Positions 5,645 to 24,777 are shown, numbered from the stretch's first letter. The stretch is DNA of 32,000 bases from Archaeoglobus fulgidus DSM 4304 (GCF_000008665.1 NC_000917.1:1860001-1892000), one strand, 5' to 3'. Notes: generated by a model from the sequence alone, not told the origin. Program-made: numbers and translations.

Positions 5645-5651
5645 AAAAAAA
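5645..5651 (-). terminator. oligo-T (T7) archaeal terminator candidate closing the fibre operon
   Basis: The plus-strand aaaaaaa run begins 8 nt downstream of the stop of the 5659..6570 gene. An AT-rich promoter-like stretch for thiM follows. Confidence 0.45.
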
Positions 5652-5658
5652 TTGAAAA

Positions 5659-6570
5659 CTAAATTTCTCTGTACTCGTAAACCACTCCTTCTGCTGCTAT
5701 TGAGTAAACTGCCTTTCCGTCAATCTCTGTCTTCACAACGGGACTGTCTGACATTGCAAAGACCTTTTTGAGGTCTTCCTCGCTTTCCAGTATGATTTTT
5801 GCACCCTCTCTCCTGCCATTAATGACGTGGGGATTTCTCCTTTCTCTCTTGAAAGCATCTCTGTTCAGAATCGCTACCGGCACTGCAGCGAAAACCGCCA
5901 TCGCCGCATAAACTATTCTGGCGCTGTTTACACTCAATCCACCAAAGCTGTTCTCTGTGACTTCTTTCGTGCTGTAAACCGTTCTTATACTCTTAGAATC
6001 ATCTGAAAAGCTGTAAAGGTCGCTCCCTTCCTTCAGCGTGATTGTGTGGTTGAAGCTCTCGTTTTCGGCTTTAGCTGTGAAGGCTATCTCCGTAATCCTC
6101 GTTAGTCTCGGCAGCGCTGTGCCATCTTTCACCGCAGCAAGTCTTTCGCCCATCTGGGTGAAGTTAAACGCAATCGGAATGCTCAAACTACCAGCGAACT
6201 CACCCTGCTCGTCCTTTAGCGTGTCCTCCCAAATCTGAACCTTGTCTCTCCCATCCTGAACGAAGTAGGTGGTTCTGACAGTCATTCGATACTCTCCAGC
6301 CCTTTCAGGGCTTATGGAGTAGAGATACTCGCCCTCTATGCTCCCTGTAATTCCGGCAGGGTAGTAGTCGAGCGATGCCTTACTGCCGTAAATTGATTCA
6401 TTCGAAAGCATTGCATGATGCTTAAACTCTCCCTTCTGCTCCACCACCTCATTAATAACACTTCTCACACTCTCAGCCGGAGTTGAGAAGGCGTAAAGGG
6501 CCATGACAGCCAGCAATGCTGCCGCAACAGACAGCACAACTGTCGTCAATTTTTTATATTTAGATTCCAT
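5659..6570 (-). CDS. bitopic membrane protein of the fibre operon: N-terminal TM or signal anchor, about 190-aa external domain, C-terminal TM, about 70-aa cytoplasmic tail
   Basis: Hydrophobic segments LTTVVLSVAAALLAVMALYAF and IVYAAMAVFAAVPVAIL, followed by a basic stop-transfer RDAFKRERRN. A GGTGAT SD sits in the 6-nt gap after the upstream gene. No family recognised with certainty. Confidence 0.7.
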   Translation of the reverse strand: MESKYKKLTTVVLSVAAALLAVMALYAFSTPAESVRSVINEVVEQKGEFKHHAMLSNESIYGSKASLDYYPAGITGSIEGEYLYSISPERAGEYRMTVRTTYFVQDGRDKVQIWEDTLKDEQGEFAGSLSIPIAFNFTQMGERLAAVKDGTALPRLTRITEIAFTAKAENESFNHTITLKEGSDLYSFSDDSKSIRTVYSTKEVTENSFGGLSVNSARIVYAAMAVFAAVPVAILNRDAFKRERRNPHVINGRREGAKIILESEEDLKKVFAMSDSPVVKTEIDGKAVYSIAAEGVVYEYREI

Positions 6571-6576
6571 ATAAAA

Positions 6577-7389
6577 TCACCTCACTGCTTTAACGATGAT
6601 GGGGTTGCTCACAATTCCAAGCCCCTTGATTTCCGCACCATCGTTGAGATTGTAACTTCCCGGACTTGTGAACTCCTGTTTTCCCGCAGGATTGTGCTTT
6701 GTTGCGATTGTTACATCCATGAACTCTGTTCCCTCAACATAGACATCCCAGACTATCTTGGTTGTACAGCTCCTCCCCGCTCCGGGGTGGTGGGTTGCGA
6801 AACTGCCATCTGAAGCTGCTATGCTCAGAACCTCAAACTCTGCAGGAATCGTGTCAAGGATGGTGTAATTGTCACCAGCATCGCTCTCGACGAGAATTCT
6901 GAACTTCCATACCTCTCTCGTGAAGAGCGGGACAGTTGTGTTACCGCTGAGTAACACTTTGCTCATCCTGACAGCTGGGTCAACAACTTTAACGCTGCAT
7001 GCAGGGATTTTGGCTGAACCGTTATCCCAGAAAGCCTCGATGTCAATCGGTATCGTGTACTCTCCCTGACTTCCTCTGAATTCAGCCTCAACGAGCTTTT
7101 CCTCACCTGCATACAGAAAAGTCGGGTTGCTGAATGTCAGGATGTCATTTGGTGTGGAGAAGTACAGCTCAACATCCTCCCCAAGGTTGTTTTTCACGCT
7201 AATCACACCTGTGCTATCGCCATTGGCAAGGTAGAGAGTCATTTCGGGGCATTCAAAGCCTATGTAGGAGCTGTTGTTATCAGCTATGTTGACAGCAACT
7301 CCCCTCGCCCCGTAATACTCTCTGAAATTACCACTCGAACCCAGAACGAGCACGAGCGTGGCGGCAAGGATTATTAACAACTTTTTCAT
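6577..7389 (-). CDS. secreted two-domain protein (putative tip or adhesin subunit)
   Basis: Signal peptide MKKLLIILAATLVLVLGSSG. The mature N-terminus NFREYYGARGVAVNIADNNSSYIGF is homologous to that of the 8887..9420 product. The C-terminal half (YTILDTIPAEFEVLSIAASDG...TKIVWDVYVEGTEFMDVTIATK) resembles DUF11/Cna-B-type adhesin repeats. ATGA overlap with the upstream peptidase gene. Confidence 0.75.
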   Translation of the reverse strand: MKKLLIILAATLVLVLGSSGNFREYYGARGVAVNIADNNSSYIGFECPEMTLYLANGDSTGVISVKNNLGEDVELYFSTPNDILTFSNPTFLYAGEEKLVEAEFRGSQGEYTIPIDIEAFWDNGSAKIPACSVKVVDPAVRMSKVLLSGNTTVPLFTREVWKFRILVESDAGDNYTILDTIPAEFEVLSIAASDGSFATHHPGAGRSCTTKIVWDVYVEGTEFMDVTIATKHNPAGKQEFTSPGSYNLNDGAEIKGLGIVSNPIIVKAVR

Positions 7390-8423
7390 AATTTCAACCT
7401 CCTTCTTTTACTCAATCTTATAACCTCCTCCTCTCCAGCCCTCGTGGCGTAGTATATCACGCCCAGAACCGCTGCTAGCTCCACCGCAAAGGCAGCGAGC
7501 GGCAGGAAAGGATTCAAACCGTACATTCTGATTATCAAATCTGATGGTAAAATGAGCGGATAAGCGTGAACCTTTACCTCCTCATAATAAATTCTTGTTT
7601 CTGACGGAACTCTAACGTGAACGCTTAACTCTGCCCTGTCCCCTCCTGAAAGTATTTTGCTCTCATCCTTCAGCTCCACTCTCTCACTTTCTGAGCTGAA
7701 AAGGTAAAGGAGTGGAAAAAGGGCGTTGTTCTTTATCTCAATCTGCCTGTCAAACTCCGATTCGGGAAGATACCACCCCTCTTTCTGCCCACCTGCCAGC
7801 GTTGATGCATAGTTGAACCCAACAACCCCCCAAGTGGCGATAACCGAAAGAAGGAGCATTGCAATTGATATTGTTGAGACTGCAACGTAGGCAGTTTTGT
7901 ATCTCAGCCTGTAAACCTTTCTCTCCTTCTTCCTCCTCTCTTCTTTTCCCGTCAAAAGCATAGCTCCACCTACTATCATGAAAACTGCAAGCAGAATGTT
8001 CATTGTTGTGCCCGAAAGTCTCTGAATGTAGTTTCCCACCTCAGGGATTTTTATGGGATTTCCAAGCAAAACCAAAACTACTCCCGCAACGCTCTCCCTT
8101 TTGACAACACTATTAGACCCCTGCTGGTCTGTGGCGATGTTGTGGTCTCCTTTGGTTATGTATCCCCCATCCGTCTCCGCCACAACTCTGTGGACCGTCC
8201 AGTGGCCGTTGAGGTTGAACACGATTATGTCGTCCGGCTTCGCCTCTGCCAGCGGATTTATGAGGAAAAGGTCTCCTCTGTTCAGCGTTGGAGTCATGCT
8301 GTCTGATGTAACGTAGGAAAGCAGAACCGGCCTGTTAAGCAAAAATCCTGCCGTTGATGCAAGCAGAAATACTGCAAGAATAAGCATGAGAAGGTCAGAC
8401 AGCTTCATCGCACTCACCTTCAA
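7386..8423 (-). CDS. type I signal peptidase, Sec11/SipW (Ser-His) type, fused to a roughly 195-aa polytopic C-terminal extension
   Basis: N-terminal TM followed by SDSMTPTLNRGDLFLINP (catalytic Ser box), WTVHRVV (His box) and GYITKGDHNIATD (GD.N..D box). No catalytic Lys box. Extra TMs are NILLAVFMIVGGAMLLTG, VAVSTISIAMLLLSVIATWGVVGF and LPLAAFAVELAAVLGVIYYA. Confidence 0.85.
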   Translation of the reverse strand: MKVSAMKLSDLLMLILAVFLLASTAGFLLNRPVLLSYVTSDSMTPTLNRGDLFLINPLAEAKPDDIIVFNLNGHWTVHRVVAETDGGYITKGDHNIATDQQGSNSVVKRESVAGVVLVLLGNPIKIPEVGNYIQRLSGTTMNILLAVFMIVGGAMLLTGKEERRKKERKVYRLRYKTAYVAVSTISIAMLLLSVIATWGVVGFNYASTLAGGQKEGWYLPESEFDRQIEIKNNALFPLLYLFSSESERVELKDESKILSGGDRAELSVHVRVPSETRIYYEEVKVHAYPLILPSDLIIRMYGLNPFLPLAAFAVELAAVLGVIYYATRAGEEEVIRLSKRRRLKL

Positions 8424-8853
8424 ACGTCTTAATGCTGTAACTTTCCTCCATCAGCCCGAGCTCGGTTGAGCTGAACTCAACGCCCACTGAAATGCTTTCG
8501 TTAACTGCCAGGGAGAAGCTGATGGTTTGCAAAGCCTCACCGCTGGTGTAAAACCTAATCAAGTCACTCTGCGAGTGAAGGACAACACAAACAGGAAAGC
8601 CGTTGCCGTTCTCTATTCTCAGCAAATCGTCAAATCTGTAAGTAGAGCCGGGGCTTAATCCCTTGCCGTATCCCGGATAATTCGGGTTGTTTTCGGTGAT
8701 GTCTATTGTAAGATTTTCCTCATTGCTGCCGTATGGTGAGGGAGAGTAAAGCAAAACTCCGTTTATGGTCTCCGCAGCTATAGCAGAGATAGCCGGAGCT
8801 CTCCATCCGAGAGCTATGAGAAGTAGTGTTATCGCAATTACGAGCTTTTTCAT
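8395..8853 (-). CDS. small secreted protein, NPNYPGYG-motif family (DUF1102-like from memory), short N-terminal variant
   Basis: Signal peptide MKKLVIAITLLLIALGWRAPAISAIA, then the motif ITENNPNYPGYGKGLSPGSTYRFDD. Paralogous to the two upstream genes. An SD (GAGGAAAG) lies upstream. Confidence 0.8.
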   Translation of the reverse strand: MKKLVIAITLLLIALGWRAPAISAIAAETINGVLLYSPSPYGSNEENLTIDITENNPNYPGYGKGLSPGSTYRFDDLLRIENGNGFPVCVVLHSQSDLIRFYTSGEALQTISFSLAVNESISVGVEFSSTELGLMEESYSIKTFEGECDEAV

Positions 8854-8886
8854 TTACTTTCCTCATAAAAAATTAAATTTGAGAGC

Positions 8887-9420
8887 TTACTCGCAAGCTC
8901 CCGCATCTGCACTTACACTCATCTGCGCTTCATTGCTTCCCAGATCCTTGTTCGTGTTGTCGAATATGAATCCAACTGGAACCGGCTGGTTGTGGTAGAC
9001 GGTGAAGTGTATCTGTGTTCCCGGACCGCTTATCGGGCTATCATAGTCTCCAGCAAAGAACGAGATGCCATCTCCCTGGTTAAGCGATATGTGGACGCAA
9101 ATCGGGAAGTCCGCATCTTCGTTCTCCCAGAGCTCGTTGCTCACGTTGAACATCTCCTCAAACACGTAGGTCGTGTTGACGCTCATTCCATCGCCATAAC
9201 CCGGATAATTGGGGTTGTTTGGCGATATCTCAATGGTCAGCTTTCCGTTGTTTAGGTAGGCGTAGGGCTGAATTGGAGTTAGATCAATAAACTCGTTGTC
9301 ATCTGATGTTATATTAACCGTCACGCTCCTCTCTGCCTCGTAATACCTGAAGTTTGCTCCCGCTCCTATTGTTAGGGTTAAGCCAACAATAAGAAGCAGA
9401 AGTCCCGCTAACTTTTTCAT
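8887..9420 (-). CDS. small secreted protein, NPNYPGYG-motif family (putative fibre subunit)
   Basis: Signal peptide MKKLAGLLLLIVGLTLTIGAGA, then the motif ISPNNPNYPGYGDGMSVNTTYVFEE. TAATG start/stop overlap with the upstream paralogue. Confidence 0.85.
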   Translation of the reverse strand: MKKLAGLLLLIVGLTLTIGAGANFRYYEAERSVTVNITSDDNEFIDLTPIQPYAYLNNGKLTIEISPNNPNYPGYGDGMSVNTTYVFEEMFNVSNELWENEDADFPICVHISLNQGDGISFFAGDYDSPISGPGTQIHFTVYHNQPVPVGFIFDNTNKDLGSNEAQMSVSADAGACE

Positions 9421-10010
9421 TATCTCACCTGTCCACAGTTATTCAGCTCTGCAGGCTCTGTTCCAAGCCTGTAGGCCTTGACTGTCATCGTCTCATCCCA
9501 CACATCTCCCGGACTGTCACCGTTAGCGCTGAGGTCCATTCCAATTCTCTTTTCCGAGTTTGGTCCAAGAGTAAAGCAAACATCATCTCTCGCACTGTCT
9601 GATGCTGTTGCTGCAGCACCGCCATCCACCGCATAAACTCCACCCTCGTGGCTGTAGAATTCCACATGCGTATCGGATGAAGTAACTCTAACAACTATCC
9701 ACATGTCTTCCCACAGATGGTTGCTAACCGCAAAAACCTCGTCGAAGTTATACTCGCTGGCAGGGCTTATTCCATCACCGTATCCCGGATAATTTGGGTT
9801 TTCAGGTGAGAAGTCCACTACAAGCTCTCCGTTGTCAGCGATGTAGGCGTAGGGCTGTATCGGCTTAAGGTCGATAAGCTCTGTATCGTCAGTTGTAATG
9901 TTCCAGTGAACGCTTCTATCTGCGTTGTAGTCACTAAAGGTAGCGCTTACGCCTATGACAAGGCTCAAAGCCACCATTGCTCCCAATATGCCCAAAGGCA
10001 TTTTTCTCAT
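9420..10010 (-). CDS. small secreted protein, NPNYPGYG-motif family (putative fibre subunit), TasA-like ATFSD N-terminus
   Basis: MRKMPLGILGAMVALSLVIGVSATFSDYNADRSV..., with the motif FSPENPNYPGYGDGISPASEYNFDE. The start is set at ATG 10008-10010, which is preceded by GAGGTGA. The ORF-track extension to 10043 (MSAECRVRGEK) lacks an SD. Confidence 0.85.
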   Translation of the reverse strand: MRKMPLGILGAMVALSLVIGVSATFSDYNADRSVHWNITTDDTELIDLKPIQPYAYIADNGELVVDFSPENPNYPGYGDGISPASEYNFDEVFAVSNHLWEDMWIVVRVTSSDTHVEFYSHEGGVYAVDGGAAATASDSARDDVCFTLGPNSEKRIGMDLSANGDSPGDVWDETMTVKAYRLGTEPAELNNCGQVR

Positions 10011-10061
10011 TTTTTCACCTCTTACTCGGCATTCTGCCGACAAGGAATATTGGTCGAAATG

Positions 10062-10076
10062 TTATATATAATATTT
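10062..10076 (-). promoter_or_regulatory. TATA-like box (AAATATTATATATAA on the minus strand) for the fibre operon
   Basis: This is the only strongly AT-rich box between the operon start and the upstream gene. It lies about 58 nt upstream of ATG 10010, predicting a leader of about 30 nt carrying the SD. Confidence 0.45.
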
Positions 10077-10121: not shown

Positions 10122-10298
10122 TTACTCAGTAGGAAGGTTCAGAAACCTCTCTCCTCTCTCTGTAATTACAAGTTTTCCGTCTTTCAGCTCTGCAAGTCCC
10201 AGTTCAAGCAAAACTTTGAGCTCCCTTTCTGACAAATCCTCTTTTGACAGCTTTCCGTCTTTTATCATTTCAAGGAGTTTGTCAATATCTCTTAACAT
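10122..10298 (-). CDS. 58-aa helix-turn-helix-like protein (below the ORF-track cutoff)
   Basis: Own translation: [58 protein letters not shown]. The ELGL....G....T.RG..FL pattern is typical of small wHTH proteins. A TATA (TCTTTAAATATT on the minus strand, 10318-10329) sits about 25 nt upstream of the ATG. Confidence 0.6.
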
Positions 10299-10358: not shown

Positions 10359-10610
10359 CTACTCAGTCATTTCCTGCAGTTCGCCATATTTTTTCACAAA
10401 ATCTCTCCCCTTATCGGTGGTGCTGTATGTTTTCTTCCCATTTTTTGAATCCAAAACGAGAAAATCGTTTTCAACAAGCTCCTCAAGATAACTCTGAGCC
10501 ATCTTGAAGTTTATGTTCGCACCGTAAACGATCTTGGTCATGTTGGCTCCGCTGTTTGTGATTTTTAAAATAGCAACAAAAATTTCGAAACGTGACCTTT
10601 TATCTCCCAT
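10359..10610 (-). CDS. small winged-helix DNA-binding protein (HTH_45-like archaeal regulator)
   Basis: MGDKRSRFEIFVAILKITNSGANMTKIVYGANINFKMAQSYLEELVENDFLVLDSKNGKKTYSTTDKGRDFVKKY is the characteristic pattern of 80-90-aa archaeal wHTH proteins. A TATA (10630-10639) sits about 24 nt upstream of the ATG. Confidence 0.8.
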   Translation of the reverse strand: MGDKRSRFEIFVAILKITNSGANMTKIVYGANINFKMAQSYLEELVENDFLVLDSKNGKKTYSTTDKGRDFVKKYGELQEMTE

Positions 10611-14966: not shown

Positions 14967-15399
14967 GCGTAATTACTTTTAAGGGAGTTGGATGAAAGTC
15001 AGCGCTTTGCTCGCACTCACGGTTGTTGTATTTCTCGTTTCCAACTTAGCCGGTAGTGTGGAATTTTCAGGCAATATAGGCAACGAAACAGTCAATAAAA
15101 CAATTTCTGTTGAGAAAGTTTACTTTCCGGGAGATAAAGTAATTCTAAAGGCAAATTTCATGCCCTTAAAGGCAAAGCTGGTTGACCCGGCAGGCAAGGT
15201 TATCGGACTGGAATTCAGAAAAAGCGAAGGGGGCTTTGAGGCGGAGCTTGAGCTGAAGAAGGATGTTGTACTAGGTAAGTATCTTCTTTTTGCGGACAAC
15301 GTTTCAGCAGAATTCTACGTGGACAGCTACTCAATTGAAGCTGCCTACTTCAATGGCAAGGTTGTTGGAAACGTCAGCTACTACTTTGCTGAGCCCGAG

Positions 15400-15514
15400 T
15401 ACGTTTACTACAAAGCCGGGAAGGAAGAGGGAAAGGCAAAGGTGGCTGAGGACGGGAGCTTTGAGATTTTGCTGAAGAAGGCAGCTAAAGAAGTCGAGCT
15501 GAGATGCGGGAATG
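15400..15514 (+). repeat. 115-bp near-identical intragenic direct repeat, copy 1
   Basis: tacgtttactacaaagccgggaaggaagagggaaaggcaaaggtggctgag... differs from the copy at 16537..16651 at 6 of 115 positions (manual alignment). Encodes YVYYKAGKEEGKAKVAEDGSFEILLKKAAKEVELRCGN. Confidence 0.9.
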
Positions 15515-16536
15515 CCGTTGAGAGGGTAAAGCTGAAGGCTGAGCTGAGCATCGTGCTTGACAGGGTTGAGGTTGTAAATGAAACGGCCTTTGTTGAGGGC
15601 AGAGTTCTGCTTAATGGTGTCGAAACTGAGGCGAACCTGAGCTACTGGTTTGATGAAGGAGAGGAGAGGGTTCTGGAGGTTAATGGAACCTTTAACCTCA
15701 GCTTCAGCAACGTCAGCGGGATTCTGCATTTGATCGCTGAGAATAACGGGCTGAGGGCAGAGGAGAGCGTTGAAATAGAGGCGATAAAGAAGGTTGTTGA
15801 GGTTGGCGGAGTTTACTTTGCGGGCGATACGGTTGAGGTTGTTACCAACTTCAAGCCTAAGAAGGGGCTGATTGTCGGGCCCGATGGAAAAAAGGAGGAG
15901 CTTGAGTTCGTTGAGGAGGACGGAAAGTATTTGGCGAGATACGAGCTGAAGAAGGACGTCGTTCTGGGTAACTACACCGTTCTGGTTGATGGAATTGTGA
16001 AGCAGTTCGTTGTCGATTTTTGCGAGGTTTCAGCCGAGTTCGGGGATGGGGCGATTTGGGGTGAGGCGAGGAGCTTCTACACCACCCCAAAGGTAAGGTA
16101 TCTTATTGCTGGAGAGAACTTTTCCGAGGAAGGGGTTGCTGGGGGGAATTTCAACATTCCCGTAAACAGGACTGGAGATTTCAGGGCTGTTTTTGAGTGT
16201 GGAAACTCCCGCTATGAGATGAACTTCAGCGTTGCGGAGGCGAGGAACGTTGAGGTGGACGATTTCAGCTTTTTGGGAGAGATTGTTGAGGTGAGAGCAA
16301 CCTTCATGCCCGAAGAGGCCTACATAGTTACTCCCTCTAACGAGACTGTTCGGCTGAACTTCTCGGAGAGGGAGGGGGCGTTCATCGCTGAGATTGGGGC
16401 AGAGGAGATTGGGAGATACAATTTGAGGGTGGATGAGTTCAATCTGAGCTTTGTGGTTGACGATTACTCGATAAATGCGAGCTTTAATGGTTCGGCTGTT
16501 GCTGGTACAATAAAATGGCATTTTGTTAAGCCCGAT

Positions 16537-16651
16537 TACGTTTACTACAAAGCAGGGAAGGAAGAGGGAAAGGCAAAGGTGGCTGATGACGGAAGCTTCG
16601 AGATTTTGCTGAAGAAGGCAGCCAAAGAAGTTGAGCTGAGATGCGGGAATG
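16537..16651 (+). repeat. 115-bp near-identical intragenic direct repeat, copy 2
   Basis: See copy 1. Encodes YVYYKAGKEEGKAKVADDGSFEILLKKAAKEVELRCGN. The flanking repeat sequence is far more diverged. Confidence 0.9.
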
Positions 16652-19600
16652 TTCTTAAGATCGTGAAAGTCACCCCCAAACCGCCAAAGGAAGAGAAAGG
16701 GGAGATTGTTGCCTTTGACCCGGTAAAAAAGGTCATTGTGATTAAAAAGCTGGAGGAGGAACAGGACGGAAAGTTTAAGATAGCTTCAACCGAGGAAAGA
16801 AAGAAAAAAGTCAAACTTGTTGAACTTGAAGTTCCCGCAACTGAGGAAAACATCAAAAAATTCAATTTAACGCCTGATGTTTTGAGCACAGAAATCAAAA
16901 CTAAAAGGGTAAAGAAGGACATGATAAGGCTGGAAGTTAACAACAAGCTGGAAACGTGGTACAGGTTCAGCGTTGAGATTCCTGAAGGTTACAGGGTTAA
17001 GGGGATTATAGGAGATGACGGGAGGAGGATTGTCAACACCGTCCATGTTAACAGGAGCACCGGCGAGTTGGAGGGAGATTTGAGGTGGTATGTTAAGAAC
17101 AATACCCTTTACTTCTACGACGATCCCATTTGGGGGTACGACATCTCCCTCTACCCACCAAGACCGAACAGGTCGATAGCGGTTGAGCTGGCTTACTCTG
17201 GACCTTATTCAGAGGGTGGACAAATTTCGGCCATTATTTTCCCTTACTCCGAAGGAGATGACGATGCAACAATAACCTCCTACGACCACGCTGGAAGAAC
17301 TGAGGATTATGGATATGCTTATGATTTGGATATTGATGCCGGTTCTAAAATCGCTATTAGGTTCTCTTCTGGCGGGAACACGAGAGAGTTTGGAAATTGG
17401 TGGGATCACTTAAATGGAGCTGAGCCGCTCGGTGATGACCTAATTAACCAGATAAGCAGAGAGGACACACCGCTAAACACTGCTCCAAACGGAGTTGTTG
17501 AAAGTGTAATCACCACAAAAATGCAAACCCCCCTCTGGCAGAACTCTCAGGTTAACATCACCCAGAAGGTCATAATCAGAGACAACAGCAGATGGTTTGC
17601 TACAATTTACTACATTGAAAACATTGGAAGTACAACCATAACGAACCTAAGATTCTTTCAGGGAATGGACTGGAACTTTAACGGAGATTTTAGTGATGAT
17701 TATGGATTCTACAATTCAAGTGTAGATACTGTCTATGGTTATGATTCAAATGCTGCACCGGGAGACATTCAGTATGGTGGTTTCTCCTCAAATATTCCGA
17801 GCTCTGCACATGACGTTGGAAATTACTACAGTGACATATGGACAGGAATAGACCAAGACAATCTTCAAAATCGGAATTCCTACTATCGAGACGCAGGAGT
17901 CGCTCTGGCATGGGATAAACCCTCTCTCGCTCCGGGAGAGATGTGGATTGTTCCGGTCATCTGGGGACTCGGATTCACTAAGGAGGACATGGTCGCACAA
18001 ATAAACGACGGAAAGTCAAAGCTCTACGATACCGGAATTCTATCCATAGACGCTCCAGCAAACAACTCAAATCTGAACCCCTCGCAGGGAGTTGTTTACT
18101 TCAACGCCACCGCAGCTCTCTTCGGGATAGTTGATGCCTACAACCTTGAGGTCATCTTCAACATTACAAAGGTCGGTGGAGGTTACAGCTATCAGGGCTC
18201 AAAGACTGTCAACCTCTCCGTCCCCGATGCAGAAACAGCCAACGTTTCCTTCCCGCTCGACATCTCATCGCTTGGCTACGGAACATACAAAGTCAGCTTC
18301 AGAACGAATCTCTCCAACGACCAGAACACTACTAACGACGAAAAGTGGATTTACGTCAACATTGTTGGATTCACTGTCGAGCCTGACAAACCATTAACTG
18401 CAAATCCCGGCGAAGAAGCGTTCCACAATCTAACCGCAATCAATGGTCTTTCCTCCCAGAGGTTCGATGTAAGGATTGAGGGCACTTCAGAAGGTTGGCC
18501 CACGGCAATATATGTAAGCGGGGTGAAAATTGCAGAAGATGCAGATGGAGACTCCTTCTGGGATTTTGTTGATTCGAATTATGACACCAACTCCAACGGC
18601 ATACCCGACATACCAATCCCACAGGGGACGAGCTACATCAACGTATCTAAGGAAATACCATCCTCCGCAGAGCTGGGGGTAAGCGACTTCACCCAGCTCA
18701 ACTTTACCTCCACAACTGACGCATCAATTTTCGATACTGCAACAATCCAAACATCCACCCCACCCCCTCCAACAGAGATTAAGACCTTCTATCTCCACGG
18801 AGATTCTGTTTTGAACACATCTGCAGAGTCCACTCCATCTCAAATACAGATCGTGGCCAACTCTCTCCACTCGTGGTATCAGAACCCGGTTTTCGCAGAC
18901 AATTTCAGGATTTACGATAACGTGACCGTAAACTTATGGCTCAGCAGTTCAACCTCATCAACTCACGAGGTTAGAGTACAGGTTCTGTCAACAACCGGAA
19001 CCACGTCATACCTTATCGGCGCAAACTCGACCACTCTCACTCTAACCACCACACCCACACTCTACACCTTCAAAATCCCTCTCACCTCCCCATTTGAGTT
19101 CCGGAGAGGAGATTACATTGTATTGAGAGTTGAAAATATCGCATCCAGCGACATGACGGTATCCATGTCCCAAACTTATTCATCGAACATTACTCTCCAC
19201 ACATCAACCTACGTTAACGTTGAAGAGATTCAATCGGTTGTTTCGGGAAACGATGTTACAGTTTACGCTAACGTAACAGACCCCATAGGCTCTTACGACA
19301 TATCTGAAGCGAGAATTGAAGTCTTCTACCCCAACGGAAGCCTTCTAATCTCAACAACCATGAACCTCAACACCACTGACCCTTCAAGCCCCTCACTCTG
19401 GAAGCTCTTCGACTTCACCTTTACTGCACCTGTGCCCGGATTTTACAGGGTAAATGTAACTGGAGTTGAGTCGAATGGTGTGACCTCAACATCCACAGCT
19501 TACGTTGCGGTGGGGAAGATAGTAACAGGGAGAGTGCTTGAAGACCTGTTCCCTCTTGGGAAGAACAATGGGGAGGATATAGGGCTCTCAAACGTGCGCG

Positions 19601-20739
19601 TTGCCCTTTATGAGGACAATGGAAACGGTTTGCTGGATGAAAACGATAAGATTGTGGGCATTGACACGACAAACTCTACCGGCTATTTCAGACTCTCTCC
19701 AGTTAATGTCTCTGCCACCTACTTCATAGTGGTTGATTCAAGAACGCTGACATCCTTCAGAGGATTAAATTCAGGTTATAAGGTGGAAAGCACTTGGGCA
19801 GAGCAAACATATCAGACTGAATGGGATGAGAGCAGCTGGGTTGTTGTTCAGAAATTTGGCGGGCAGGATCCGGAGGAAAGCGACTCCTTCGGGCTGAACT
19901 TTGAGCACTATACAGCCTTAAACCTCAACAACTACAATGGAGAAAGTATAGACTTTGGATTCAGCTTTGAGGTCATCGTTAACATCGAAGACAAAAAGGA
20001 AGAGAGTTTGAAGCCCATTGGGGAGGTATTTATAGTAGAGAACGTTGGCGAGAGCTGGAAGACGGTTTACCTTCACAACTACTATGAAAGTCCCGTTATA
20101 GTGTGCACCTACAACCTCCCGAGCAGTTCTGATCCACCAGCAGTTGTAAGGATAAGGAATGTTCAGCATTACAGCTTTGAGATAAGGATTCAGAATCCCG
20201 GAGATTCTGCGACACCAACACCATCAGACGTGCACTGCATCGTGATGGAGGAGGGGAACTGGACTCTAAGCGATGGAACAAAGGTTGAGGCTCACAGGGT
20301 GGTGAGTGATGAGACAAATCGTCGTGGAAGCTGGAATTCAGGATTGGAGCACCTAACTTACAACTGGAGCTATGCAAACCCAGTAGTTCTGGGGCAGGTT
20401 ATGAGCTACAACGATCCCGACTGGTCGGCTTTCTGGTGCAGTAATGGAACAAGGCAAAACCCTCCAGATTCTTCAAACCTTTACGTCGGAAAGCATGTTG
20501 GTGAGGATACAGACATAACGAGAAATCCCGAAGTTCTGGGTGTGATAGTCGTTGAAGCCGGAAGTGGGGTTGTTAATGGCATGAGTTACGAAGCGGATCT
20601 CGGCGCCGATTCCATCAGGGGAGTTGATGACGGCCCACCCTTCAGCTACTCCTTAGGCGGTGATTACTCAGTTGCGATAACCACTCAAAATGCTATGGAT
20701 GGTGGAAACGGAGGTTGGGCTGTATTATACGGTTCAAAT

Positions 20740-20749
20740 CCTGTTAGCA
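20740..20749. repeat. target-site duplication, left copy (cctgttagca)
   Basis: Identical 10-mer at 21964..21973, immediately outside the IS inverted repeats. Confidence 0.85.
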
Positions 20750-20769
20750 GGTTTTGGGACAAAATTCCT

Positions 20770-20943
20770 TTAATCCCTGACAACAATCACATACGCTCTC
20801 CACCCAATATACCTCTTGGGCACATCAACCTTTGCTGAATTACCGAAAGGCGTGACTCTCTTCTCGAAAACAACCTCAACCTCCTCTTTCAGAACAAAAT
20901 CTCCCTTCTTCACTTCAACCCTCCTCATGTTAAGTATATCCAT
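20770..20943 (-). CDS. small IS-encoded protein, 57 aa (AbrB/SpoVT-like; DUF2080-type 'transposon-encoded protein' from memory)
   Basis: MDILNMRRVEVKKGDFVLKEEVEVVFEKRVTPFGNSAKVDVPKRYIGWRAYVIVVRD. The FGNSAKV.VPK...G pattern fits a swapped-hairpin barrel. Divergent from the transposase across a 36-nt AT-rich spacer. The longer 136-aa track ORF is an upstream extension antisense to the transposase. Confidence 0.6.
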   Translation of the reverse strand: MDILNMRRVEVKKGDFVLKEEVEVVFEKRVTPFGNSAKVDVPKRYIGWRAYVIVVRD

Positions 20944-20979
20944 AGAAATACTTAAATACTTTTTGGTTGGAATCAGAAC

Positions 20980-21948
20980 ATGAACCTTGGATTCAGAGTG
21001 ACAGGGAAGTTTGTAAGGGAACTTCTGGATGTTTTGGATGAAATTGCAGAGGAGATAAGACAGGAGGAGAAGGAAAAGTATCCGTACACAGAATGGGAGA
21101 GGAAGAGAGAAGTTGTTAAGGAAAGGCTGAGAAAACTCCCTGAATACGTTAGAGAGGCTATTTCTGTGATAACCGTGCAAAAGAGGGTGGGAAGACCAAA
21201 GAAAGTTGATCTGGAGAAGAGAGTTATGCTCTTTCTGTTTGCAAGGCTGATGGACAAATCAAACAGAGATATTGAGGAGCTTTTAGAGCTGTTTGAACCT
21301 TTATTCGGGATAAAGGTTAGCTACAAAACGATAGAAAGATTATACTCGGATGAAGAAGTTAGAATGGCTTTACACAACCTCTTCATCCTTCTGCTTAGAG
21401 AGGAAGGAGTTTCAGGAGATTTTTCAGGAGATGGGACAGGATACAGCCTAACCATCACTAAGCACTATAGAAGCAATCCTAAAAGGAAAGGTAAAGACTT
21501 CAGATACGTTTTCAGGATAATTGACATCGATACGGGAATGTACGTTGGCTTTGGCTATTCTGACAGATCTGAGAAAGATGCCTTTGAGAAGGCTTTAGGA
21601 ATGCTCAAAAGCATGGGGGTGAAGGTAAACTCGATTTCTCTGGATAAGTATTACAGCAGTAGGAAGACTCTGAGGCTGTTTGATGCTGAGACAGCTGTCT
21701 ACGTCATTCCAAAGCGAAATCTTGCCAGAATAGGATTTGACTGGTTGAGGGTTATCGAGAGGATTGTTGAAGCTCCTTATAGGTTTCTGAAGAGGTACTT
21801 CAAGAGGAACTTAAGTGAGGCAGGATTTTCTGCTGATAAGAGGAGATTTGGATGGTTGATAAGGCAGAGGAGGGAGGACAGGAGAGAGATGGCTTTGTTT
21901 GCTGTTGGGCTGTGGCACAATGTGTTTGCTGTTAGGGTGGTGAGGTAA
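20980..21948 (+). CDS. IS transposase (DDE-type)
   Basis: 322-aa ORF with GDGTGYSL, SLDKYYSS and a C-terminal RNLSEAGFSADKRRFG (the N..E..FS..KR.FG pattern common to IS4/IS5/ISH3-like DDE transposases). The stop codon lies inside the right inverted repeat. Confidence 0.85.
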   Translation: MNLGFRVTGKFVRELLDVLDEIAEEIRQEEKEKYPYTEWERKREVVKERLRKLPEYVREAISVITVQKRVGRPKKVDLEKRVMLFLFARLMDKSNRDIEELLELFEPLFGIKVSYKTIERLYSDEEVRMALHNLFILLLREEGVSGDFSGDGTGYSLTITKHYRSNPKRKGKDFRYVFRIIDIDTGMYVGFGYSDRSEKDAFEKALGMLKSMGVKVNSISLDKYYSSRKTLRLFDAETAVYVIPKRNLARIGFDWLRVIERIVEAPYRFLKRYFKRNLSEAGFSADKRRFGWLIRQRREDRREMALFAVGLWHNVFAVRVVR

Positions 21949-21963
21949 TTTTGTCCCAAAGTC

Positions 21964-21973
21964 CCTGTTAGCA
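21964..21973. repeat. target-site duplication, right copy (cctgttagca)
   Basis: Identical to 20740..20749. Confidence 0.85.
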
Positions 21974-23886
21974 ATAAACTTAATCTTTCAATTGATGAAG
22001 ATCAAATCAGAGATGGTGAAAGAAGCCATGGTACTGAACAGGTTGCGTATTGGGTTTTCAACAAATCCGGCACACTTACAACAAAAGTTGATTCAGAGAG
22101 GTACTGTCAGGGCTGCTTGAGACAGTTCATAGCCAACTCCAACGCCATTGCAGGAAAGCAGCGTTCGTACTTCGTAATGGCTGTTGAGCCAAATAACAAG
22201 GTTTCTGACAGCAAATGGTGGAGCATAACAGTCAACTCCACCCTCGGCTCTCTACCAAATTTCAACGATGAGGTGGAGCTCAACGGAACCGTTTTAAACG
22301 CTGACATGACCGTAAACAACTCCAACCCAGACTGCCTGCTCTACAACTACTCCACCAACACCCTCGAAAGCGTAGCGTGTAGCAAATCAATCCCCGTTGG
22401 TGTTGGAAGCGATGGAGTGCCTTTCAGCGGTGACGAGCCGAGGTTAAATGCAATACCAAAGCCAGAAATCGAGATTATTGGTGTTGCTGGCTCTCCAGTG
22501 CTCAACTTTACTGCTAAGGCTCATGTAAGCTCCGTCAGCGTTTTCAGTGGTTCAAACGGAATAGAGGTTTATGGAGATGATTCTCAGCTCGATAAAGTCT
22601 TTGCTGGTTTGAGGGCGGATGGTTCTGACCCTTCGGATTCAGGCTTCCCAAGGATTTCAAGTCACGGAATCAGAATTCTTTCAAATAACACCACAGTTAA
22701 CTCTTCAATTGCCGCTTACAACGGAGGTCTGGGAATTCGATTCGAGGGTTCAGGAGTTAACTCTGGAAAGGCGGTGAACAGTATTGCATACTACAACGCC
22801 TTAAGCGGAAGCAATCTTGACGGTTTCATTGCTGTGAATGGGGCCTCAAACGTCATCTTCGAGAACTGCGTTGCGGCAAACAATTCAGGTTCAGGGATCG
22901 ACAACTACAATGGAGGCAGGATAACGATAAGGAACTGCTCTGTGGTCAAGAACGGGTGGGGGAATGCTGAGCCGAGCGGAATTAGAGTTTCGGGCAGTGG
23001 GAGCGAGATAGTAAACAACCTCGTTGCTGAAAATGTTGGAGATGGGATACTCGTCACACCTACTGGCAGCACAAGTACGCCAACCGGCATCAAAATTTCA
23101 AGAAACTCCATTTTCAAGAACGGCTATGTCGGTATCGACCTGAATGTTGAAGACACATCGAACAACATGGGAGACAATGTAACATTAAACGACGGCCAGC
23201 TCGACTGCTCTCAACCAAACTGCGGAATAGACTACCCCGTAATAACCGCAGCACAGCTTATCGGCAGCTCACTCCACATTGAGGGGTTCATAAACGACGA
23301 GAACGCTGGAAGTGGAAGCTCCAGCTTCGCCGGCGCCACCGTGGAAATCTACATGGTCAACAACTCAACTGATGGAGATGACCTTGCGGGCAACAATGTC
23401 CTCTCAGGTGGTTCCACATCCTCAAAATTCTACGGAGAGGGCTGGATTTATCTTGGGTCCTTAACAGCAGACTCAAGCGGTAACTTCCGGGGAGAGTTGA
23501 ACGTAGCGGGCAAAGGTGCAGAGGTTGGCTCCCTTATAACCGCTTTAACAATACTCAACGGAAACACTTCAGAGTTCGGTCCAGATGCCCGCGTAACGAC
23601 AAAACCCGTTAAAGTGAGAGCCGAGATGGCTATAACTTTCCGTGGTGCAAACATCACAATCACGGCTCTTGAGGAGGCGAACAACGTCAAACTTTACTGG
23701 ATAAAACCATCCGGCCTCGTTTTAACGGCAGAAGGTGATTTCGATTCAAGCGGCAATGATGGCGACATCTACTGGTGGGAGTTTGGCAGCATCTCTGCTG
23801 GAGAAGTTAGGCACGTTAACCTGACGTTCGGCGGAGATTTCTCCCTCATCGAGACATTTAACATCGGAGTTGACCCTCTGCAATAA
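21964..23886 (+). pseudogene. 3' fragment (about 640 codons) of the IS-disrupted giant surface-protein gene
   Basis: The frame is open from the IS end onward: (PVS)NKLNLSIDEDQIRDGERSHGTEQVAYWVFNKSG... It contains parallel beta-helix (PbH1/NosD-like) repeats at about 22657-23145 (GIRILSNNTTVNSSIAAYNGGLGIRF...NNSGSGIDNYNGGRITIRNCSVVKNG...) and a C-terminal beta-sandwich-like tail. No signal peptide or credible start of its own; the track start at 22117 is a TTG. Confidence 0.85.
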
Positions 23887-24703: not shown

Positions 24704-24777
24704 GGGCCGGTAGCTCAGTCTGGTAGAGCGTCGCCTTGGCATGGCGAAGGCCTGGGGTTCAAATCCCCACCGGTCCA
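24704..24777 (+). tRNA. tRNA-Ala, anticodon GGC
   Basis: Manual cloverleaf: acceptor GGGCCGG/CCGGTCC with the G3:U70 alanine identity pair; D arm GCTC-AGTCTGGT-AGAGC; anticodon stem TCGCC/GGCGA with loop TTGGCAT; T arm TGGGG-TTCAAAT-CCCCA; discriminator A. CCA is not encoded. Confidence 0.95.

Follow-up and report, generated by a model that had tools for sequence, protein, structure and literature searches.

A Sec-dependent tafi-like fimbria cluster predicted in Archaeoglobus fulgidus and its relation to described donor-strand fibre systems

Introduction

Donor-strand fibres that are built with neither chaperone-usher nor type IV machinery constitute a recently recognized class of archaeal surface structures, which has been linked to biofilm. 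The subject of this study is a gene cluster predicted to encode such a fibre, AF_2076–AF_2081 of Archaeoglobus fulgidus DSM 4304, together with the upstream gene AF_2083. The cluster is located within a stretch of 32,000 nucleotides (nt) (accession no. NC_000917.1; position 1860001–1892000), referred to below as the window; all coordinates are counted from its first letter.

The closest described system is that of the haloarchaeal Tafi fimbriae. Haloarcula mutants deleted for tafA or for tafD form no Tafi, and TafA is left unprocessed in the absence of TafD (PMC11821415, iScience 2025). The TafE pilus of Natrinema sp. J7-2 was resolved by cryo-electron microscopy, which revealed strand donation between subunits that form a 3+5-strand sandwich, topologically distinct from the AbpA-type jelly-roll, and the pilus plays a role in biofilm formation (PMC12337348, PNAS 2025). 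The first of these studies also lists the genes examined here: AF_2076 (DUF5305, TafG-like), AF_2077 (TafC-like tip), AF_2078 (TafD-like) and AF_2079–AF_2081 (DUF1102; AF_2079 is termed the TafF analogue), with AF_2083, named the TafB analogue, as the regulator of a Sec-dependent tafi-like cluster (PMC11821415). The cluster is displayed there as the Sec-type counterpart of Tafi (Figures 7B and 8B), and AlphaFold heterotetramers of AF_2077 and AF_2079–AF_2081, joined by donor-strand exchange, are presented as a prediction. The original prediction for this stretch of DNA, which had been made from the sequence alone, assumed that such a locus had not previously been characterized. This view cannot be maintained, as the cluster is named by locus tag in the 2025 paper; the locus is already known and the present analysis is no discovery. 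In the literature searched, neither these locus tags nor those of the Thermococcus counterparts were found in any further paper. The Archaeoglobus and Thermococcus clusters are thought to be a Sec-dependent, and probably ancestral, version of the haloarchaeal Tafi, whose export is dependent on twin-arginine translocation (Tat).

Other donor-strand fibres differ in their assembly machinery. The FimA subunit of chaperone-usher type 1 pili has an incomplete immunoglobulin (Ig)-like fold, which is completed by the N-terminal strand of the neighbouring subunit. The Sec-dependent archaeal donor-strand pili formed by AbpA (Pyrobaculum calidifontis) and by Saci_0406 (the Sulfolobus threads) are encoded by clusters without tafD or tafG homologues (PMC11821415).

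Results

The analysis indicated that AF_2076–AF_2081, with AF_2083 upstream, form a Sec-dependent tafi-like fimbria cluster whose products are predicted to build a thin donor-strand surface fibre; a probability of approximately 0.78 may be given to this reading. The functional logic originally predicted for the locus (Sec export, a signal peptidase encoded in the operon, an N-terminal donor strand and no relation to type IV systems) is supported by the homology of its small proteins to TafA/TafE, by synteny and by the pilin-like β-sandwich modelled for one of the subunits, and is in accordance with the published findings on homologues.

The six genes were identified as AF_2081 to AF_2076 by exact protein matches, and are designated G1 to G6 in their operon order of transcription, G1 being the first (9420–10010) and G6 the last (5659–6570). 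Exact A. fulgidus matches were obtained in the database for 7 of the 8 queried proteins, i.e. for all but one of the six operon products and for both products of the upstream open reading frames (ORFs). The form of G4 initiated at TTG 8423 has no copy in the protein collection, in which the 340-amino acid (aa) ATG form is present at 100% identity. The exact sequence of G3 is on record from a single contig, that of strain DSM 4304.

The DUF1102 pilin-like proteins

G1 (AF_2081; 9420–10010, minus strand) encodes a 196-aa protein with a Sec signal peptide and a strong match to Pfam DUF1102 (E 1.4e-59; exact match AAB89178.1). G2 (AF_2080; 8887–9420, minus strand) encodes a 177-aa protein of the same kind (E 1.4e-62), and G3 (AF_2079; 8395–8853, minus strand) a 152-aa paralogue (E 1.9e-24). 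With bit scores of 200.8, 210.5 and 86.9, respectively, all three are above the gathering cutoff of DUF1102 (PF06510; 22.2). Each protein contains exactly two cysteines and one N-terminal hydrophobic segment (the single such segment of G1 comprises residues 6–24), and none of the six operon products has a twin arginine within its first 35 residues. The ATG start codon of G1 (10010) is preceded by the sequence GAGGTGA (10015–10021); an extension of this gene to the upstream TTG 10043 is unlikely, since the database copies of the protein are 196 aa long.

The motif NPNYPGYG(D/K)G, which had been described as common to the three small secreted paralogues, was found in G1, G2 and G3. It is not a marker of the whole family: the strict regular expression NPNYPGYG retrieves mainly Archaeoglobi genes plus part of those of Thermococci, and, in an alignment of 50 sequences, invariance within the loop is limited to its two glycines.

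The predicted mature N-termini of G1 and G2 are TFSDYNADRSV and NFRYYEAERSV, respectively. Alignment of the three paralogues revealed an N-terminal deletion in G3, which lacks the ~13–20 residues corresponding to the donor strand of G1 and G2. Among the third genes of Archaeoglobi clusters, 4 of the 5 found by motif scan have the motif at residues 54–58, compared to residues 69–71 in the longer paralogues. G1 is a candidate filament or adapter subunit of the TafA/TafE type and G2 a candidate filament subunit, while G3 may be regarded as a candidate chain-ending subunit, analogous to TafF, that would accept a strand without being able to donate one.

A profile built from 50 DUF1102 proteins was searched against 1.84 billion representatives, which yielded 477 relatives. 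The consensus N-terminus of 80 more distant relatives (M.RR...GLG...GTGAF) includes a twin-arginine motif. NCBIfam and Pfam models assigned 79 of the 80 sampled relatives to TafE, 67 to TafA and 77 to DUF1102, and none (0/80) to Peptidase_M73. Direct alignment of the DUF1102 family with the TafE-like set using hhalign resulted in a probability of 99.8% (E 2e-30, 169 columns). By sequence comparison, G1–G3 are homologous to the haloarchaeal TafA/TafE pilins and the locus represents a Sec-type branch of this superfamily. Their scores are far below the cutoffs of the NCBIfam equivalog models; they form a separate clade of superfamily members that are no TafA/TafE equivalogs.

A search of solved structures with the sequence of G2 alone produced only chance matches. 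The best match of the DUF1102 family profile was a weak one to the chain 9p0a_C ("Pilin"; E 0.26), which covers the donor-strand region GAF..EADR.V.V; judged by its sequence, this chain is probably a Tafi-type pilin. The AlphaFold2 model of G2 is a β-sandwich (predicted local distance difference test score, pLDDT, of 82), and the leading Foldseek matches in the PDB were the FimA entries 6r74, 2m5g, 5nkt and 6r7e (E 7e-4 to 1.4e-3; template modelling (TM) score 0.37–0.49), the same entries that have been reported for TafE (PMC11821415). The Pyrobaculum bundling pilin AbpA (7ueg) ranked sixth (E 3e-3), and no entry described as TasA was found among the top 50 matches. The Peptidase_M73 model gave a sub-threshold match to G1 (E 0.13; 12.5 bits vs a cutoff of 22.5), which is limited to residues 2–57, and no match to G2 or G3. 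Membership of the small proteins in the TasA/camelysin family, to whose N-termini those of the mature proteins had been likened in the original prediction, is not borne out by sequence: the family model is sub-threshold on G1, absent from G2 and G3, and absent from all 80 relatives. TasA is an analogue of these proteins in mechanism or, in structure, a very distant relative at most.

The signal peptidase, the tip candidate and the membrane partner

G4 (AF_2078; 7386–8408, minus strand) encodes a 340-aa signal peptidase I of the Sec11/SipW (S26B) type, with matches to TIGR02228 and Peptidase_S24/S26. The TIGR02228 score (62 bits) is above the cutoff (51.85), the closest solved structures are those of SEC11A/SEC11C, and residues S37, H73, R74 and D88 are invariant (for S37, H73 and D88 among 36 homologues), in agreement with the Ser-His peptidase of this type that had been proposed. 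Four hydrophobic/transmembrane segments (residues 6–24, 136–154, 173–191 and 301–319) and a second extracytoplasmic domain (approximately residues 192–300) were identified. A four-helix peptidase with a second external domain, as in G4, is also the architecture of TafD (PMC11821415), and G4 is a putative TafD homologue that would act as the dedicated signal peptidase of the cluster. A word-index search with G4 produced no match to the haloarchaeal TafD, all of its matches being confined to Archaeoglobi and Thermococci; the link to TafD is based on the architecture and the catalytic residues of G4 and on the published assignment (PMC11821415). A DUF1102-like strand-acceptor domain was also considered for the second external domain of G4, and found no support in the sequence: hhalign comparison of the peptidase family with DUF1102 gave a probability of 13%.

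G5 (AF_2077; 6577–7389, minus strand) encodes a 270-aa secreted two-domain protein, recognized by its homology to DUF1102 and by an Ig-like fold. An N-terminal donor strand (NFREYYGARGVAV) is followed in G5 by a domain derived from DUF1102, in which the NPNYPGYG loop is missing, and by an Ig-like domain of the DUF11 type at the C-terminus; some homologues of G5 carry a DUF11 annotation. The N-terminus is similar to that of G2 (BLASTP E 2e-6), with the common strand NFR.Y.A.R.V.V.I, and hhalign comparison of the G5 family with DUF1102 gave a probability of 97.8% (E 1e-12) over residues 1–120. The AlphaFold2 model (pLDDT 85) consists of two β-sandwich domains, and the N-terminal strand region (residues 19–38) is disordered in it. 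In Foldseek, the model matched Ig-like domains arranged in tandem, from the legs of integrins and from the stalks of Gram-positive adhesins. These results agree with the earlier description of a two-domain, adhesin-like secreted protein. G5 is a candidate tip or initiator subunit, with a role like that of TafC or TapA.

G6 (AF_2076; 5659–6570, minus strand) encodes a 303-aa membrane protein, which carries the name DUF5305 in UniRef and gives a sub-threshold match to the DUF5305 model. It had been predicted to be bitopic. The protein is indeed a membrane protein, but its bitopic nature is uncertain, since two hydrophobic segments (residues 10–28 and 217–235) are present, along with an extracytoplasmic domain (~190 aa) and a cytoplasmic tail (~68 aa). 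Segment 10–28 may be an uncleaved anchor. G6 is proposed to be an analogue of TafG and the partner of the peptidase.

Conservation of the cluster

The conservation of the gene order was examined using one genome per species. The scan yielded 57 loci, and almost all of these belong to Archaeoglobi and Thermococci. The usual order is two DUF1102 genes, an optional third DUF1102 gene and the peptidase gene, followed in most loci by G5-like and G6-like genes. The peptidase gene is present in 54 of the 57 loci; the contigs of the other three end directly after the DUF1102 genes. Synteny of the peptidase and the small secreted genes, which had been set beforehand as a test capable of refuting the original prediction, is retained in all 54 loci with sufficient DNA.

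The identity of AF_2080 to its Pyrococcus/Thermococcus orthologues (57–67%) is high across archaeal classes, which fits the horizontal exchange suggested for such genes (PMC12337348).

Several loci depart from the usual layout. In nine loci from Archaeoglobaceae/Archaeoglobales metagenome-assembled genomes (MAGs) (L043, L045–L052), an AF_2083-like winged helix-turn-helix (wHTH) gene is located, in divergent orientation, ~1.7 kb upstream, and no G6 (DUF5305-like) gene was detected by tblastn after the G5-like gene; the G6 partner is either too diverged to be detected in these loci or the cluster functions without it. No G5-like gene was detected by tblastn in loci L012, L026, L027, L029 and L030, in which ~400–670 nt without any match separate the peptidase gene from the G6-like gene. 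This stretch may encode a small single-domain TafC analogue, as reported for Pyrococcus (PH0562). Loci L054, L055 and L057 have a variant layout, in which three tandem DUF1102 genes, all closest to G1, are followed by the peptidase gene, with one or two AF_2083-like wHTH genes 2–3 kb downstream. A contig of 1094 bp from an Actinomycetota MAG bin (L044; accession no. JACIXO010000449.1) contains two DUF1102 genes with 44–45% identity to G1/G2; it is most likely an archaeal binning contaminant and not a bacterial homologue.

Operon structure and neighbouring genes

All six ORFs are present as co-directional, coupled genes of the minus strand, spanning positions 5659–10010, as had been predicted, and all five of the junctions described between them were found. 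G1 and G2 are joined by the sequence TAATG, while G2 and G3 are separated by a 33-nt spacer (8854–8886) that includes GAGGAAAG. G3 and G4 overlap by 14 nt if translation of the latter starts at ATG 8408, or by 29 nt if it starts at TTG 8423, and G4 and G5 share the sequence ATGA (7386–7389). The gap between G5 and G6 is 6 nt long (6571–6576) and has the sequence TTTTAT. The Shine-Dalgarno-like GGTGAT that had been placed inside this gap is located at 6576–6581, where it overlaps the stop codon of G5.

The sequences assigned to the boundaries of the unit are likewise both present by direct reading. An AT-only 15-mer on the minus strand (AAATATTATATATAA; 10062–10076), ~55 nt upstream of the G1 ATG, is a candidate archaeal TATA box. 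A T7 run on the minus strand (5645–5651), which is preceded by a T4 run and begins 8 nt past the TAG stop codon of G6, is a candidate oligo-T archaeal terminator. The former may act as the promoter and the latter as the terminator of the operon. The genes flanking the cluster are unrelated housekeeping genes: thiM, which starts 61 nt downstream of the G6 stop codon, and thiE on the downstream side, and the gene for the oxaloacetate decarboxylase beta subunit upstream.

Two small ORFs are located upstream of the operon. AF_2083 (10359–10610, minus strand; exact A. fulgidus match) encodes an 83-aa winged-helix regulator (Pfam HTH_45, E 7e-26), and AF_2083-like genes adjoin the cluster in many Archaeoglobi loci. 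It is a probable TafB-like transcription regulator of the fimbria cluster. Between this gene and the operon, AF_2082 (10122–10298, minus strand; exact database match) encodes 58 aa with a weak match to HTH_45 (E 0.0036). Its identity is 67–81% in the close Archaeoglobus loci L001–L004 and 37% in L008, and its database cluster is represented by an entry of the same name with a length of 48 aa. AF_2082 is possibly a second small wHTH-like protein or regulator; in the accessible part of the tafi paper it is not among the genes treated (PMC11821415).

The window contains several further large ORFs on the plus strand: one of 1948 aa (14992–20838) with almost no Pfam signal (only a sub-threshold match to the Big_6 Ig domain), one of 322 aa without a Pfam match (20980–21948), and one encoding a 589-aa right-handed β-helix protein (22117–23886). 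These ORFs, located ~5 kb from the fimbria operon, could constitute a giant surface-protein cluster. The GC skew changes sign in this region (14992–23886). The single tRNA gene of the window is located at 24704–24777 on the plus strand (Rfam RF00005, 69 bits).

Discussion

The gene content of the locus, the homology of its small proteins to TafA/TafE, the type and catalytic residues of its peptidase, its synteny and the presence or absence of the donor strand in each paralogue were established in this analysis. The distribution of the strand, which is present in G1, G2 and G5 and missing from G3, independently fits the published model. From these data we infer fibre formation, the order of the subunits, the specificity of the peptidase and the anchoring of the fibre, as follows. 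G1, G2, G3 and G5 would be exported through Sec by means of classical signal peptides, which would be cut by the TafD-like G4, probably jointly with the TafG-like G6. Cleavage would bare the N-terminal strand (T/N)F..Y.A.R.V.V.I on G1, G2 and G5. The chain would be started by G5, which would give its strand to a DUF1102 subunit and end up at the distal tip, and G1 and G2 would then polymerize head to tail by donor-strand exchange. The last strand would be taken by G3, a β-sandwich core without a donor strand; since G3 cannot pass a strand on, it would end the chain, closing it on the side of the cell.

The fibre is a prediction in A. fulgidus, and several observations weigh against it. The searchable literature contains no filament, transcript or processed protein from such a locus, in A. 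fulgidus or in any of the Thermococcales. The equivalog models of TafA (NF052520) and TafE (NF052522) match only the N-terminus of G2, with 14.7 bits vs a cutoff of 190 and 12.8 bits vs 155, respectively, and do not match G1 or G3. The structural matches of G2 are weak (TM 0.34–0.49), and so is the assignment of G6 to DUF5305 (E 0.0017; 18.2 bits, below the Pfam cutoff of 29). Moreover, G3, unlike TafF, has no transmembrane segment by which the fibre would be anchored.

Alternatively, the secreted DUF1102 proteins would not be filament subunits but components of a small complex without filaments, on the surface or in the pseudo-periplasm (e.g. an accessory of the S-layer, an assembly for substrate binding or a capped oligomer), and would simply be processed by the linked peptidase. 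The searchable literature describes no experimental filament in any organism with a Sec-type cluster, some Sec-type TafE homologues have been predicted to be non-filamentous or non-oligomeric, the AlphaFold results being predictions (PMC12337348), and the monomer model of G2 packs its own N-terminal strand (residues 31–39) as a β-strand. Such a complex is nevertheless unlikely, given the strong homology of these proteins to experimentally proven pilins and the conservation of the entire cluster in two orders; a strand-bearing tip, two full subunits and one strand-less subunit are, moreover, what a polymer with defined ends needs. It is very improbable that the locus is an archaeal tapA-sipW-tasA operon in the strict sense, with small proteins that genuinely belong to the TasA/camelysin (Peptidase_M73) family. 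An S26B peptidase of the SipW type is indeed encoded in the operon (SipW model, E 7e-7), the mature N-terminus TFSD of G1 resembles the start of TasA/camelysin proteins, the N-terminus of G1 gives a sub-threshold Peptidase_M73 match (E 0.13), and AbpA, a TasA-like pilin, ranks sixth among the Foldseek matches (E 3e-3). However, the Peptidase_M73 match is below the cutoff, and the family is absent from G2, G3 and the 80 TafE-like relatives; the SipW equivalog model NF046067 scores 29 bits vs a cutoff of 190, so that G4 belongs to the S26B class without being an equivalog. In addition, Foldseek is led by FimA-type pilins, with no TasA-described entry in the top 50, and the 3+5 sandwich of the solved TafE is explicitly unlike the AbpA-type jelly-roll (PMC12337348).

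The probability of a type IV pilus or an archaellum-related system is negligible, and nothing in its favour was found. In line with the earlier statement that the locus is not of this type, no ATPase or platform domain was found in the products of the six genes or of the genes next to them. The signal peptides are organized in the classical n-h-c manner, with small-residue cleavage sites preceded by a long hydrophobic core, and are not of class III. In Haloarcula, according to the accessible part of the published work, deletion of the gene for the prepilin peptidase PibD has no effect on Tafi (PMC11821415). Both this reading and that of a chaperone-usher system are ruled out by the gene content.

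A donor-strand fibre of the Tafi kind is the preferred interpretation of the cluster, and, on this interpretation, reasoning from the sequence alone recovered the correct biology. A further idea, possible but rather doubtful, is that the Sec-type cluster represents an ancestral Tafi with a different base, in which the chain is closed by the soluble strand-less AF_2079 and not by a membrane-anchored TafF. If so, the fibre would be held or released in another way; for instance, the TafD-like peptidase might contribute its second external domain, or the DUF5305 protein might serve as an assembly platform. The peptidase-DUF5305 pair would then be an usher-like machinery in minimal form, by which single-membrane organisms assemble donor-strand pili.

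By structure, the G2 model is closest to FimA of the chaperone-usher type 1 pilus (E 7e-4; TM 0.41–0.49), to which it has no sequence similarity (7–9% identity). That system depends on a chaperone, an usher and an outer membrane, none of which is part of the A. fulgidus system; no chaperone or usher domain was found in the locus, and the weak likeness of fold to FimA is the only link. The polarity of the A. fulgidus fibre would also be opposite, as its tip protein would donate a strand and not only accept one. AbpA and the Sulfolobus threads (Saci_0406) share with the predicted fibre their Sec-dependent export and donor-strand assembly in archaea, and AbpA was retrieved, as a weak match, by the Foldseek search with the G2 model; sequence homology between the A. 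fulgidus DUF1102 proteins and AbpA or Saci_0406 was not detected.

The tapA-sipW-tasA operon of Bacillus subtilis resembles the A. fulgidus cluster in its overall logic: export through Sec, a Sec11-type peptidase encoded in the operon, polymerization of the major subunit by an N-terminal donor strand and an accessory protein that gives the first strand. The mature N-termini also have a short resemblance (TFSD/NF...). In contrast, the sequences of G1–G3 do not match the TasA/camelysin family significantly, G4 has, in addition, a hairpin of two helices, a fourth helix and an extracytoplasmic domain, and the A. fulgidus operon also encodes a weakly DUF5305-like partner and several paralogous subunits, one of which is strand-less.

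The closest counterpart is Tafi, represented by TafA–TafG of Haloarcula hispanica and the TafE pilus of Natrinema sp. J7-2. Filaments have been seen in that system, and are predicted for A. fulgidus. Export in A. fulgidus is by Sec signal peptides without a twin arginine, whereas Tafi is exported via Tat; the A. fulgidus cluster is a single co-directional operon; its predicted chain-ending subunit, G3, has no transmembrane anchor, unlike the membrane-anchored TafF; and the C-terminal domain of its candidate tip protein is Ig/DUF11-like, in contrast to the laminin-G-like domain of Tafi. Common to both are a homologous pilin family (DUF1102 being part of the TafA/TafE superfamily), a TafD-like four-helix Ser/His peptidase with a proposed TafG-like partner (in A. 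fulgidus, by a sub-threshold match to DUF5305), a TafC-like protein, in A. fulgidus a candidate tip, whose pilin-like N-terminal domain carries a donor strand, a chain-ending subunit, predicted in A. fulgidus, and a small regulator encoded next to the cluster.

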